From Vicinamibacterales bacterium (GTDB lineage Bacteria; Acidobacteriota; Vicinamibacteria; Vicinamibacterales; UBA8438), in NCBI GenBank assembly GCA_965221305.1, contig OZ244881.1, forward strand, positions 3,542,091-3,606,090: a stretch of DNA of 64,000 bases. Reading direction: 5' to 3'. A model generated the notes under the pieces. That model made no database searches. It saw only the letters and a program-made list of their open reading frames with translations, and was not told the origin of the DNA. The translations under genes were made by a program, and so were the position numbers. Of the stretch, positions 6,711-61,249 are shown piece after piece (the stretch's first letter is position 1; each line of letters begins with the position of its first letter).

Positions 6711-7889
6711 GTGGCGGACGACAGACTGATCATCTTCGACACCACCTTGCGGGACGGCGAGCAGGCCCCCGGCTTCTCGATGAACACGGCCGAGAAGCTG
6801 CAGCTCGCGCGGCAGCTCCAGGTGCTGGGGGTCGACGTGATGGAGGCGGGGTTCCCGATCGCGTCGAAGGACGACGCCGAGGCGGTGCGCCTCATCGCCG
6901 CCGAGATCGACGGACCGGTCATCGCCGGCCTCGCCCGGTGCAACCCCGCCGACATCGAGTGCGCCGCCGAGTCGGTGAAGCCGGCCCGGCGATCGCGCAT
7001 CCACACGTTCATCGCCACGTCCGACCTGCACCTCGAGCGGAAGCTGCGCATTTCGCGCGAGGAGTGCCTGCAGTCCGTGGTCGACAACGTGAAGCTGGCC
7101 CGCTCGTTCACCGACGACGTGGAGTTCTCGGCCGAGGACGCGACGCGCAGCGACACCGACTTCCTGTGCCGGGTGGTCGAGACCGCCATCGACCGGGGGG
7201 CGACGACGATCAACCTGCCCGACACCGTCGGCTACTCCACGGCGGACGAGATCGAGCAGTTCTTCACCGGCATCATCGGGCGCGTCCCCAACGCCGACAA
7301 GGCCGTGTTCAGCGCCCACTGCCACGACGACCTCGGGCTGGCGGTGGCCAACTCGCTCGCCGCGGTGCGCGCCGGCTGCCGCCAGATCGAATGCACCGTC
7401 AACGGCATCGGCGAGCGGGCCGGCAACGCGTCGCTCGAAGAGCTGGTGATGGTGACGCGGGTGCGGAACGACCGGATGCCGTACGCTACGGGCATCCGGA
7501 CCACCGAGATCTACCCCACGAGCCGCCTGCTGTCCGAGCTGACCCACGAGCCGGTGCAGGCCAACAAGGCCATCGTCGGCCGGAACGCCTTCGCCCACGA
7601 GGCGGGCATCCACCAGGACGGGGTCATCAAGGACCGGCGCACCTACGAGATCATGCGCCCGGCCGACGTCGGGGTGGCCCAGTCGACCCTGGTGCTCGGC
7701 AAGCACTCGGGCCGCCACGCCGTCAAGCAGCGGTGCGAGCAGCTCGGTTTCGATCTGAGCCGCCTCGAGCTGGACCGCGTATATCGGGCCATGGTCGACC
7801 TCGCCGACCGCCGGAAGACGGTCGAGGACACCGACCTCGCCGCCATCGTCACCCGCCTGCAGGCCGACCAGTCGGCCGGCGCGGCCTGA
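6711..7889 (+). CDS. leuA: 2-isopropylmalate synthase, short form (catalytic TIM barrel plus subdomain only)
   Basis: Motifs FDTTLRDGEQAPG, HCHDDLGLAVANSLAAV and NGIGERAGNASLEE are present. It is only 392 aa and stops 9 nt before leuB, so no C-terminal LeuA_dimer/regulatory domain is encoded. Confidence 0.85.
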   Translation: MADDRLIIFDTTLRDGEQAPGFSMNTAEKLQLARQLQVLGVDVMEAGFPIASKDDAEAVRLIAAEIDGPVIAGLARCNPADIECAAESVKPARRSRIHTFIATSDLHLERKLRISREECLQSVVDNVKLARSFTDDVEFSAEDATRSDTDFLCRVVETAIDRGATTINLPDTVGYSTADEIEQFFTGIIGRVPNADKAVFSAHCHDDLGLAVANSLAAVRAGCRQIECTVNGIGERAGNASLEELVMVTRVRNDRMPYATGIRTTEIYPTSRLLSELTHEPVQANKAIVGRNAFAHEAGIHQDGVIKDRRTYEIMRPADVGVAQSTLVLGKHSGRHAVKQRCEQLGFDLSRLELDRVYRAMVDLADRRKTVEDTDLAAIVTRLQADQSAGAA

Positions 7890-52320: not shown

Positions 52321-52791
52321 GTGGCAGAAGCAGCGGTAGTACACACGAGCCGGCTGCGGATCGAGCGTATCGGCGGTCCGCTGCGGCACGCGTATCTCGA
52401 GGGTTTCGACGAGCCGATCCGGTTCGGTGTCCACGGGGGCATCAAGGCGTTCTACGGCGTCGAACCTCCGGAGGACGTGCCGGCCACCCTGGACTACATG
52501 GTCGGCGCCGTCGGCGGTTGACTGCTCGGCACCCTTGCACGCGCACTGGAGGTGCGCGACATCCCGGCGCCGACGGAGAAGCTGCAGGCCAGCGTCGAGG
52601 GCGACATCCAGGCCATCGACAACGTGCTGCGCATCACGACGATCCGCGTGCGGTACCGCATCCGCGTTCCCTCCGGCGCCCTCGAGCGGGCCCGGCGGGC
52701 GGTCGACACCCACGCGACGAAGTGCCCCGCCGCCAACAGCGTGCGCGGTTGCATCGACCTCGACATCGACGCCGACATCACGGAGGAGTGA
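52321..52791 (+). CDS. OsmC/Ohr-family peroxiredoxin-like protein with in-frame UGA (candidate selenocysteine) at 52519-52521
   Basis: GTG start 5 nt after GGAGGA. Track ORFs 52165..52521 and 52552..52791 are in the same frame, separated only by one TGA. Read-through gives ..LDYMVGAVGG-U-LLGTLARAL.., where OsmC proteins carry the first conserved Cys. The second Cys motif (ATKCPAANS) is intact. A SECIS-like hairpin follows. Confidence 0.6.
52540..52558 (+). promoter_or_regulatory. Candidate bacterial SECIS hairpin for the OsmC-like gene
   Basis: A 7-bp stem CGCGCAC/GTGCGCG with loop TGGAG. The loop starts 25 nt after the UGA. Confidence 0.45.
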
Positions 52792-58658: not shown

Positions 58659-59321
58659 TCAGCGCACTGCGTCGCTCTCCAGGCGGTCGTCCGGCACGAA
58701 CCGGTCGCGCGCGGGCATGACGACATCAGGCAGCGTGGCCGCGTTCATCACTGCATCGTCGTCGATGATCCGGTTCTTCGCCAAGATCCAGGCGACGAGC
58801 CCGTACACCTCGTCCGGGGTCAGCGTCCCGGGGGCGTTGCCCGGCATCGCGCGGTAGACGTAGTCGTAGAGGGTAGTGGCGTACGGCCAGTAGTTGCCGA
58901 CGGTGGGCGGGCGCGCGGCCGGGTCGCGGCCGACGACGGGGGCGGCGATGCCGCCTTCGCCTTCCGGTCCATGGCATGCTCGGCACGCACGGTCCCAGAC
59001 GCGCGCGCCGTCGGCGACGGTGCCGCCGCCGAGGGGCAGACCGGCGCCGTCGGGCCGGATGTCGATGTCGAGGGCGGCGACCTCCTCCGCCGTCGCGGCG
59101 CGCCCCAGCCCCAGCGGGCTCGCCGCAGCCTCTTGCGGCGCCTGCCCGGCCGCCGCCGCCGGGATGCCTGCCACCACCAGGAGGGCCGGTCCCAGGAGCC
59201 AGCGCATGCGTGCCCGCCGCGTGCTGCCGGCAATGCGTCCCGCCCGGGCGTCGCCCGCGGTTCGGTCCGGGTCGCCAGGCGACGGGCGGCCGAGCCCACA
59301 GGACAGCGTCGTCCGCATCAT
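58659..59321 (-). CDS. Monoheme c-type cytochrome, SoxD/SorB-like partner of sulfite dehydrogenase
   Basis: CRACH heme site, plus WPYATTLYDYVYRAMP. The ATG at 59321 overlaps the SoxC-like stop (ATGA). An alternative start at 59207 (MRWLLGPALL..) lies directly before the signal peptide. Confidence 0.7.
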   Translation of the reverse strand: MMRTTLSCGLGRPSPGDPDRTAGDARAGRIAGSTRRARMRWLLGPALLVVAGIPAAAAGQAPQEAAASPLGLGRAATAEEVAALDIDIRPDGAGLPLGGGTVADGARVWDRACRACHGPEGEGGIAAPVVGRDPAARPPTVGNYWPYATTLYDYVYRAMPGNAPGTLTPDEVYGLVAWILAKNRIIDDDAVMNAATLPDVVMPARDRFVPDDRLESDAVR

Positions 59322-60550
59322 GACCGCAGCCTCTCCGCCCCGAAGAGCACCCGACCGTCGGCGCCGACGGTCCACGAGGTGATGGGATTCCAGTGATACC
59401 GGGTCCCGAGCCCCCGGGCGGCGACGAGCGCCTCCCAGGTCGGCTGGACGTAGCCGGTCTCGTCGGTCGCCCGGCTCATGATCTCGGCCGCGCCGCCCGC
59501 CCACCGCCACGGCGCGCGGAACCGGACGTGAGCCTTGGGCAGCACCGGCGCCTGCAGCTCCGCCTCGCGCCACGTCACCCCGCCGTCGGTGCTGACGTCG
59601 ACGCGGGCGATGCTGCCGCGTCCGCTCCAGGCCAGCCCCCGGATCTCGTGGAAGCCGGGCGTCAAGACGCGCGGAAAGGCGGGGTCGGTGACGATGGAGC
59701 GCGCGTCCATGACGAAGCTGAATTGGCGCGACCGGCTCCCGTCCCCGAGGGGGTCGGTGTACTTCGATGTCTCCTCGCGGGTCATGAACGGGCCGTCGGC
59801 GAGCTCGATGCGGCGCAGCCACTTGACGCTGGCGTTGCCCTCCCAGCCCGGCAGCAGCAGCCGGACCGGATAACCGTTACCGGGCATGAGGGCGTCGCCG
59901 TTCTGCGCGTAGACGAGCATGGCGTCGTCGAACGCCTTCTCCATCGGCACGCTGCGGGTCATCACTGCCGCATCCTGGCCCTCGGCGAGGAACCAGGTGG
60001 CGGCGGGCCGCGCGCCGACCTCGCGCAGCACCGTCGACAGCAGCACGCCCGTCCATTCCGTCTGGCTCGTCAGCCCGCAGACCATCTGGGGCAGCGTTTC
60101 CGGACCGCCGCGGCGGAGGTTGCCCGAGCACTCCAGGAAGCAGATGCGCGACGTGGCGGGGAACCGCTTCAGGTCGTCCAAGGTGAAGACGGTCGGGCGG
60201 TCGACGAGTCCGTGGACGAGCAGCTCGTAGCGGTCGGGGTCGATCGAGGGTACGCCGCCGTGGTGTCGCTCGAAGTGCAGGTCGGCCGGGGTGATCGTGC
60301 CCCGCAGGTCCTGCAGCGGCGTGCGCGACGATGTCGAGCTCGGGTCGCGCCGCGGGTCCACGAAGGGCGAGCGCTCGCCGCGGTCGCTCGGCAGTGGTCC
60401 GGGCCGTCGGGTGGTCTCGATGGCTTGCTGCGCCGCCGCCGGCACCGCCGCCGCGCCCACCGCTCCGGCCGCCCCGGCGATCACCTGCCGGCGAGTCGGG
60501 CCCGTCCGCCGCGGTCGAGAGGAGTTTGCCGATCGGTCGCGGTACGCCAT
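59318..60550 (-). CDS. Molybdopterin sulfite dehydrogenase/oxidase family protein (SoxC/SorA-like), Tat signal
   Basis: The start at MAYRDRS.. is preceded by AAGGGGGTGG. A twin-arginine segment TRRQVIAGAAG is present. The Mo-co region shows FLECSGN and GYPVRLLLPGWEGN. Confidence 0.8.
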   Translation of the reverse strand: MAYRDRSANSSRPRRTGPTRRQVIAGAAGAVGAAAVPAAAQQAIETTRRPGPLPSDRGERSPFVDPRRDPSSTSSRTPLQDLRGTITPADLHFERHHGGVPSIDPDRYELLVHGLVDRPTVFTLDDLKRFPATSRICFLECSGNLRRGGPETLPQMVCGLTSQTEWTGVLLSTVLREVGARPAATWFLAEGQDAAVMTRSVPMEKAFDDAMLVYAQNGDALMPGNGYPVRLLLPGWEGNASVKWLRRIELADGPFMTREETSKYTDPLGDGSRSRQFSFVMDARSIVTDPAFPRVLTPGFHEIRGLAWSGRGSIARVDVSTDGGVTWREAELQAPVLPKAHVRFRAPWRWAGGAAEIMSRATDETGYVQPTWEALVAARGLGTRYHWNPITSWTVGADGRVLFGAERLRS

Positions 60551-60661: not shown

Positions 60662-60867
60662 GTCCCAGAGCTTGCTTTGCCGTCCTGTCGCTGGTTCTCG
60701 CTGGCAAACGCCGCGAAGACGCCCCGCGACATGGGCAGCCTCTCTCAGGGACGGTAGACTGGTGGACCGTCCCTGAGTTTCCTTCGCCGTCGTGCCGCTG
60801 GCTTTTCGCTGGTCAGCGCCGCGAAAACCCCCCGCGACATGGGCAGCTTCTCTCGGGAACGGTCAAC
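60662..60867. repeat. ~100-bp direct repeat x2 (period 107) with a 10-bp hairpin at the junction
   Basis: gtccc(a/t)gag..gccgcgaa(g/a)ac(g/c)ccccgcgacatgggcagc(c/t)tctctc..ggt occurs at ~60662 and ~60769. The junction forms CAGGGACGGT-N10-ACCGTCCCTG. It lies between the SoxC-like start and the SelW-like stop. Confidence 0.85.
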
Positions 60868-61103
60868 TAGGCGGTGGGGACGGCGAGCGAGCGCAGCGCC
60901 CCGATGACCTCGTCGGGCTCGGGGAACCGCTGCTCCTTCTGCTTCGAGAAGATCAGTTCGCCGTCGGCGACCACGTCGAACTGTCCGCGGCCGCCGACCA
61001 CCACGTCGGCTTCGACCCCGAGCGCATCCTGAATCGCGGCCGCCAGACTGGTGGCCTTGGGCAGGTAATTTCAAACCTTGCAGTAGCTGATCGACACCTT
61101 CAT
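60867..61103 (-). CDS. SelW/SelT/Rdx-family small redox protein with CxxU (in-frame UGA at 61071-61073)
   Basis: Hand translation of the minus strand gives MKVSISYCKV-U-NYLPKATSLAAAIQDALGVEADVVVGGRGQFDVVADGELIFSKQKEQRFPEPDEVIGALRSLAVPTA. This matches the Rdx pattern (xxVxIxYCxxC/U..., GxFEVxvdGelifSK, FPexxEv) as I recall it. It is absent from the ORF track because of the TGA. Confidence 0.75.
61038..61056 (-). promoter_or_regulatory. Candidate SECIS hairpin for the SelW-like gene
   Basis: The mRNA reads GGCCACC-AGUCU-GGCGGCC (6 of 7 stem positions paired, with one A.C mismatch). The loop starts 21 nt after the UGA. Confidence 0.45.
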
Positions 61104-61134
61104 GACGCGCCGATCGTACCGCATCCACCTCCCC

Positions 61135-61249
61135 TCGCGCAACGGCCGCCGATCGCCGAGCCTGAGTCGGGAACTTGCGCAGCGTCTGGCCCCTCCTTGA
61201 CGGATGGATGGGTCGCGCAACGGCCGCCGATCGCCGAGCCGGAGTCAGG
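61135..61249. repeat. 36-nt direct repeat x2 (period 78) between the SelW-like and gluconolactonase genes
   Basis: tcgcgcaacggccgccgatcgccgagcc(t/g)gagtc(g/a)gg occurs twice. Confidence 0.85.

Follow-up and report, generated by a model that had tools for sequence, protein, structure and literature searches.

The locus described here raises a single question: is the UGA codon that interrupts a short minus-strand reading frame, lying beside genes for a putative sulfite dehydrogenase, read as selenocysteine (Sec) or as a stop? We addressed it within the 64,000-nt (64-kb) stretch of Vicinamibacterales (Acidobacteriota) DNA that was analyzed as a whole (hereafter, the window), using the translated frame, profile and structure comparisons, the equivalent loci of related organisms, and public DNA and RNA assemblies. 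We are confident that the frame is a SelW-like gene whose in-frame UGA specifies Sec, and that it belongs to a known family rather than being a discovery. The gene exceeds what chance would produce, as a family profile (PF10262) matches across the UGA and the TGA is kept in 85 of 85 related loci.

A short gene with one in-frame UGA

The features of the gene itself are as follows.

60867..61103, minus strand: predicted SelW-like (Rdx family) selenoprotein gene, from its translation, PF10262, TIGR02174, an AF2 model and Foldseek
61103-61101 and 60869-60867, minus strand: ATG start and TAG stop of the SelW-like gene
61071..61073, minus strand: in-frame UGA (codon 11, predicted Sec; second redox residue of C8-K-V-U11), TGA in 85/85 loci and Cys in 2ljk and 2fa8

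Translation of the minus strand gave a frame of 78 codons with a single in-frame TGA, which is codon 11. The frame opens with ATG AAG GTG TCG ATC AGC TAC TGC AAG GTT TGA AAT TAC CTG, continues with CCC AAG GCC ACC AGT CTG GCG GCC and runs on to TAG; with TGA written as U, the protein reads MKVSISYCKVUNYLPKATSLAAAIQDALGVEADVVVGGRGQFDVVADGELIFSKQKEQRFPEPDEVIGALRSLAVPTA. The codon of Cys8, the first redox residue, lies at 61082-61080. An earlier note on this DNA had proposed a 78-residue minus-strand protein with one TGA read as Sec, and the translation of 60867-61103 matches the sequence it quoted. It had also stated that the track of open reading frames overlooks the gene; we found its fragments in the standard list as 61071..61220 (49 aa) and 60867..61004 (45 aa), and the gene went unlisted because both are shorter than 60 aa. 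A 1565-nt contig assembled independently from the best-matching DNA run (X1), which may be the source sample of the sequence, showed no differences (0) over 60800-61200, and the TGA is therefore no consensus error.

Family membership and predicted fold

The Pfam profile PF10262 (Rdx) matched residues 2-71, spanning the UGA, at an E value of 2.8e-16 and 59.9 bits (cut-off 22.6), and the NCBIfam model TIGR02174 (CXXU_selWTH) scored 50.4 bits, above its cut-off of 34.2. With the Campylobacter-type equivalog NF041051 (SelTWH_Campy) the score was 83.1 bits, narrowly below the cut-off of 88, so the gene is not filed there. Searching the sequences of the PDB matched MIEN1 and bacterial SelW-related proteins, and position 11 of the query aligned with the second Cys of their CxxC motifs (CEPC in MIEN1, 2ljk; CTQC in Atu0228, 2fa8).

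An AF2 model built on 73 homologues, among which C8 and position 11 are invariant, had a pLDDT of 89.2 and comprised a strand (residues 3-8), the CxxU loop, a helix (14-28), three further strands and a C-terminal helix, that is, beta1-loop-alpha1-beta2-beta3-beta4-alpha2. The best 21 Foldseek matches of this model were all bacterial Rdx crystal structures (3dex, 2fa8, 2ojl, 2oka, 2p0g and 2obk; TM 0.8-0.9), followed by MIEN1 and mouse SelW (2npb) and then by thioredoxins at a TM of about 0.5. The modelled fold is the thioredoxin-like SelW/Rdx fold, beta-alpha-beta-beta-beta-alpha. Profiles, PDB matches, model and structural neighbors agree with the Rdx/SelW assignment made in the earlier note, and the alignment of U11 with the second Cys of CxxC homologues bears out its reading of the motif as CxxU with Sec in the second place. 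The product would be a 78-residue, cytoplasmic, SelW-like (Rdx) thiol/selenol oxidoreductase of thioredoxin-like fold, with a redox centre Cys8-x-x-Sec11 in the loop between strand 1 and helix 1.

Conservation of the UGA and of the reading frame

TGA occupies the CxxU codon in all 85 homologous loci, comprising 9/9 loci from metagenomes and 76/76 from genomes. The genome loci came from a scan of one genome per species with the pattern GQFDVVAD, which lies 30 codons downstream of the TGA, and the search pattern therefore cannot favour TGA. The genomes behind these loci are named and cover at least seven phyla; the proteins are 36-97 % identical to the query. By record title the loci belong to Acidobacteriota (Vicinamibacteria, Terriglobia and Thermoanaerobaculia), Actinomycetota, Planctomycetota, Polyangiaceae and other deltaproteobacteria, with further loci from Anaerolineae, Binataceae and Verrucomicrobiia. 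Each of the nine metagenome loci reads M(K/Q)(V/I)SISYCKV-TGA-NYLPKA, and different clades share no related sequence ahead of the ATG.

Within the Vicinamibacteria clade, variable columns in codons 2-10 numbered 4/9, 3/9 and 8/9 at the first, second and third codon positions, as against 10/10, 10/10 and 9/10 in the 30 nt upstream of the ATG. After the UGA the corresponding counts were 23/58, 18/58 and 50/58, and synonymous codon differences (382) outnumbered non-synonymous ones (237). Because the variation is codon-periodic on both sides of the UGA, a single frame appears to be translated across it. A frame that is not conserved beyond the UGA had been named in advance as grounds for abandoning the selenoprotein reading, and we found it conserved on both sides in all homologues. 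The UGA almost certainly encodes selenocysteine.

The annotations in public collections suggest a different product, a shorter protein of 65 aa from a Leu codon after the UGA, or of 45 aa from the GTG at 61004, with everything upstream untranslated; the gene callers of ENA, JGI and NCBI give precisely such fragments. In the large protein collection, members of the family are fragments of 42-65 aa, with the exception of P0004; most of the fragments open just past the UGA, and the closest ones begin at (M/L)PKA, directly after the UGA position. At the annotated start, a start codon is not conserved: CTG stands here, relatives have TTG or CTG, locus L015 has CTC, and non-start codons occur elsewhere. 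Proteins of this kind would lack strand 1 and the entire redox motif of the Rdx fold, and they leave unaccounted for the codon-periodic constraint on the ten codons before the UGA, which ends at the ATG. We regard a shorter product as extremely unlikely and retain the full-length, Sec-containing one; NCBI already labels two of the orthologue fragments (P0008 and P0012) as selenoproteins.

The exception, P0004, is the sole apparently full-length homologue and carries Y in place of U. It comes from a marine contig (Tara; 516 nt, 0.74x coverage), and its similarity to the family starts only at the codon following the UGA; we left it out as a probable chimera or decayed copy. The loci L086 (200-433) and L087, from the same Tara contig, begin with the ten codons MRRGHTSSQY where the family has ...SISYCKVU, and they keep the hairpin described below. 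A second in-frame stop occurs 32 codons into L084 (7788-7955; RLDVD*VLEP), a locus of an uncultured-bacterium MAG that may represent a pseudogene or a sequencing error. The codon preceding the UGA (61074-61076) is GTT in nearly all Vicinamibacteria, while GTT makes up only 3.9 % of the Val codons of the window's genes; selection acting on the UGA context may explain this preference.

A conserved hairpin downstream of the UGA

The element that might direct decoding of the UGA is the following.

61038..61056, minus strand: bSECIS-like hairpin GGCCACC-AGUCU-GGCGGCC, within the coding sequence (codons K16-A22), with covariation

Its loop occupies 61049-61045, with the invariant loop G at 61048, and begins 21 nt past the UGA (22 nt with an A-U pair closing a GUC triloop). 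A hairpin of this sequence with its loop 21 nt past the UGA was part of the earlier proposal; its location proved exact, and its covariation lies well over the controls. The bSECISearch model allows spacings of about 16-37 nt, and the spacing here fits. Homologues with one extra codon have the loop 24-25 nt after the UGA, and the same hairpin is predicted at the equivalent place in nearly all distinct homologues.

Across 65 distinct aligned sequences, the eight specified pairs form in 92.7 % of cells. Sliding the 3' partner by 1-3 columns lowers this to 37-51 %, and shuffling the columns lowers it to 79 %; none of the shuffles (0/500) reached the observed pairing. Compensatory changes occur in five of the eight pairs (at one position, for example, 40 sequences have G-C and 25 have C-G), and cells with double changes number 58 in the hairpin against at most 20 in the slid controls. 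Pairing in the stem survives changes in the encoded peptide, for example ATSLAA versus VTSLVN. Of 86 sequences, 68 have AGUCU as the loop pentamer, and the loop G is invariant; the Ser codon of the loop is always AGU, a triplet that accounts for 2.6 % of Ser codons in the high-GC3 genes of the window. Contigs from other samples that carry more distant members of the family match the gene only over 61033-61074, which comprises the UGA and the hairpin.

Searches of Rfam returned no match to the hairpin, either for the gene region at E values up to 10 or for the whole window at gathering scores. Folding of the single sequence over the 71 nt after the UGA was no better than shuffles (z = 0.02), and it is therefore the comparative evidence alone that supports the hairpin, which on that evidence is a conserved, covarying, bSECIS-like element. 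Three other CCAGUCU sites occur in the window, none with an upstream UGA. The 10-mer CCACCAGUCU, which covers the loop of the predicted SECIS together with the 5' half of its stem, has just two copies in the window; the second (60765-60756) forms the loop in an intergenic hairpin of 12 bp that lies 107 nt past the SelW-like stop. We rejected this copy as a second SelB site, as it is absent in 31/31 relatives checked; it is probably due to chance or to local duplication.

We propose that translation begins at the ATG at 61103 and that codon 11 is not read as a stop, with the hairpin at 61056-61038 (apical A-GUC-U) acting as a bacterial SECIS. It would presumably be bound by SelB carrying Sec-tRNA(Sec), so that selenocysteine is delivered to the ribosome; SelB binding and actual incorporation of selenium, like the promoter described below, are what we infer. 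Since the SECIS would lie within the coding sequence, it would constrain the encoded peptide to A-(A/T/S)-S-L-A-A and fix the rare Ser codon AGU.

The same hairpin could be read merely as a stimulator of readthrough, with a near-cognate Trp or Cys tRNA or a suppressor tRNA inserting some other residue. This is exceedingly improbable, given that the UGA falls on the second redox position of the CxxC/CxxU motif and is aligned with Cys in the solved homologues, and that the position of the hairpin and its small, G-containing loop are as in bacterial SECIS elements. The Sec/Cys pair is a classic criterion for selenoproteins, and SelW-like proteins are an established CXXU family (PMC1088965). Bacterial SECIS elements are stem-loops directly downstream of the UGA with a small, G-containing apical loop (PMC1088965).

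Probable selenocysteine decoding and a second, apparently recoded gene

The window contains a second gene that is apparently recoded.

52321..52791, plus strand: OsmC-like gene, predicted to be UGA-recoded (UGA at 52519-52521), with PF02566 matching residues 56-149 across the UGA (E 1.1e-11)

A GC-rich hairpin, CGCGCAC-UGGAG-GUGCGCG, lies about 25 nt downstream of its UGA. The orthologue in locus L001 is split into two gene calls. Scans of the window for coding signal through a UGA and for a UGA followed by a hairpin found no recoded UGA beyond those of the SelW-like and OsmC-like genes; the in-frame UGA at 7887 was considered and rejected, being the end of a gene with the start of the next in frame. 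OsmC-like and SelW-like proteins are both established selenoprotein families (PMC1088965, PMC1794560), and Acidobacteria are recorded with selenoproteins (PMC1794560). A literature search on selenocysteine in Vicinamibacter found nothing relevant.

The gene might also be a relic of an organism that has lost Sec decoding, in which case the UGA would terminate translation after ten codons and the remainder would be an untranslated fossil. Consistent with this, neither sel genes nor a tRNA-Sec occur within the 64-kb window; a tRNA-Sec was likewise lacking from the 85 related loci, and signature motifs of SelA, SelB and SelD were not found in 1.48 Mb of related-locus DNA, which is a weak negative. 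Loss of the Sec trait normally leads to decay of the gene or to replacement of the UGA by a Cys codon, and neither was seen in any of the 85 loci (0/85). Here the frame, 97 % identical to those of relatives, is intact, as is the hairpin, and differences across the clade are mostly synonymous. The OsmC-like gene is intact as well, and the persistence of both recoded genes in intact form, 8.5 kb apart, speaks against the trait having been lost. A relic is thus very unlikely, and we keep to the reading of a gene that is decoded with Sec.

Expression and a candidate promoter

In four of four metatranscriptomes (sponge and marine), a contig about 94-96 % identical to the gene spans 60867-61104 or 60867-61123 continuously with the UGA unchanged; these RNA contigs are sequences of relatives, and carry-over of DNA is possible. 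Most of the public runs that share words with the window (X2-X20) are sponge metagenomes and metatranscriptomes, and the Vicinamibacterales lineage studied here may be sponge-associated. Upstream of the gene we noted a promoter candidate.

61113..61142, minus strand: candidate sigma-70-like promoter, TTGCGC (61142-61137), 18 nt, TACGAT (61118-61113)

The candidate ends 9 nt before the ATG, and a Shine-Dalgarno sequence is absent, an arrangement that suggests a near-leaderless mRNA from the predicted promoter; homologues of the Terriglobia type have a GGAGAA Shine-Dalgarno sequence instead. Across Vicinamibacteria loci, TTGCnC and TA(C/A)(G/C)AT recur at constant spacing while the flanking bases diverge. 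A scan with the consensus promoter did not call the candidate, which matched at 8/12 positions. The RNA contigs could not be used to place the 5' end of the transcript, because they have no direction and some run far upstream of the promoter candidate.

The segment that carries the candidate -35 element (61135-61171, 37 nt) is duplicated 78 nt upstream at 61213-61249 with 95 % identity, and the upstream copy overlaps with the terminal part of the SGL lactonase gene. At the 61135-61249 duplication, one X1 contig contains a joint that goes back 66.

The sulfite dehydrogenase neighbourhood

Two genes downstream of the SelW-like gene resemble those of a sulfite dehydrogenase.

59318..60550, minus strand: SorA/SoxC-like sulfite-oxidase-family molybdoenzyme (PF00174, E 3e-47; PF03404, E 3.5e-14)
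58659..59321, minus strand: monohaem cytochrome c, SorB-like partner (PF13442, E 2e-11)

The molybdoenzyme and cytochrome c matches confirm the adjacency to sulfite dehydrogenase genes that the earlier note had reported. The SorA-like gene lies 316 nt downstream of the SelW-like gene and encodes a Tat-type TRRQVI N-terminus; a methyltransferase gene follows that of the cytochrome c on the same strand, and the SGL-family lactonase gene lies upstream of the SelW-like gene. The order Rdx, SorA, cytochrome c and methyltransferase recurs in most Vicinamibacteria loci (L001, L005-L038), with TldD/PmbA genes inserted between Rdx and SorA in some. In three closely related loci (L002-L004), SorA genes are absent and transposase genes lie downstream. 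Outside Vicinamibacteria, the linkage of Rdx to SorA was absent in all phyla represented among the loci.

It is conceivable, and in our judgement unlikely, that in Vicinamibacteria the SelW-like gene is the promoter-proximal member of a sorAB transcription unit and works with it, for example in cytoplasmic thiol protection or repair under sulfite stress, or with the molybdoenzyme as its target prior to Tat export. The conserved one-strand order speaks for such a unit, as does the lack of any predicted intrinsic terminator in the 316-nt gap between Rdx and SorA here; the confinement of the linkage to Vicinamibacteria and the TldD/PmbA insertions of some relatives speak against it. A direct partnership of the two proteins is further disfavored by the Tat signal, which is present on SorA and absent from the Rdx protein.

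The gap has features of its own. Within 60695-60868, a 66-nt unit whose start coincides with the Rdx stop codon recurs 108 nt on with 83 % identity, and about 50 other contigs of the best-matching run match 60821-60870 at 90-95 %, with depth about 100x that of the surroundings. The unit thus belongs to a dispersed repeat family (REP- or MITE-like), of which the window has these two copies only. The whole 330-nt gap downstream of the SelW-like gene folds better than shuffles (z = -2.8).

Comparison with known selenoproteins and significance

The prokaryotic SelW-like family has been known since 2004-2005. With 48 genes of the CXXU type, it outnumbered every other selenoprotein family in the Sargasso Sea data set (PMC1088965), and its close relatives include few or no Cys forms (PMC1794560). 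The gene described here resembles these selenoproteins in its N-terminal CxxU after strand 1, its length (about 75-80 aa), its Rdx fold, the small hairpin with a loop G that follows the UGA, and the rarity or absence of Cys forms. It shows no difference of kind from them and represents a GQFDVVADG-type branch found in Vicinamibacteria and in other soil, marine and sponge lineages.

Cys-containing bacterial Rdx proteins of solved structure include Atu0228 (2fa8), SAV_2001 (3dex), Q7WAF1 (2ojl), the PA3341-type protein (2oka), a Vibrio cholerae SelW-related protein (2p0g) and a Pseudomonas fluorescens protein (2obk). They share the position of the redox motif with our model and superpose on it closely (TM 0.8-0.9, rmsd 1.0-2.7 A), but they carry CxxC without a UGA or SECIS, are about 100-108 aa long as deposited and are 22-33 % identical to the query. 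Mammalian SelW (2npb, TM 0.70) and MIEN1 (2ljk, TM 0.79) share its family and fold, and SelW is also a CxxU protein. MIEN1 differs in having CxxC, and eukaryotic SelW differs in having a SECIS of another type in the 3'-UTR (PMC1088965).

Bacterial SECIS elements of the E. coli fdhF type are comparable in layout, with a hairpin directly 3' of the UGA, within the coding sequence, and a G-U-containing apical loop. The element here is shorter (8 pairs, 19 nt), and its binding by SelB is predicted.

The SelW-like gene is a sound annotation correction and not a discovery, and it raises no new biological question. The value of the correction lies in annotation, as the public entries are fragments of 42-65 aa without the redox centre. 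The 65-sequence SECIS alignment offers a clean case of an RNA signal shaping a protein, through A-x-S-L-A-A and the rare AGU, and could be the starting point for a covariance model with which to search for genes of this kind. Because the orthologues are listed as fragments, the selenoproteomes of Vicinamibacterales, and of several other soil, marine and sponge-associated lineages, are under-counted.
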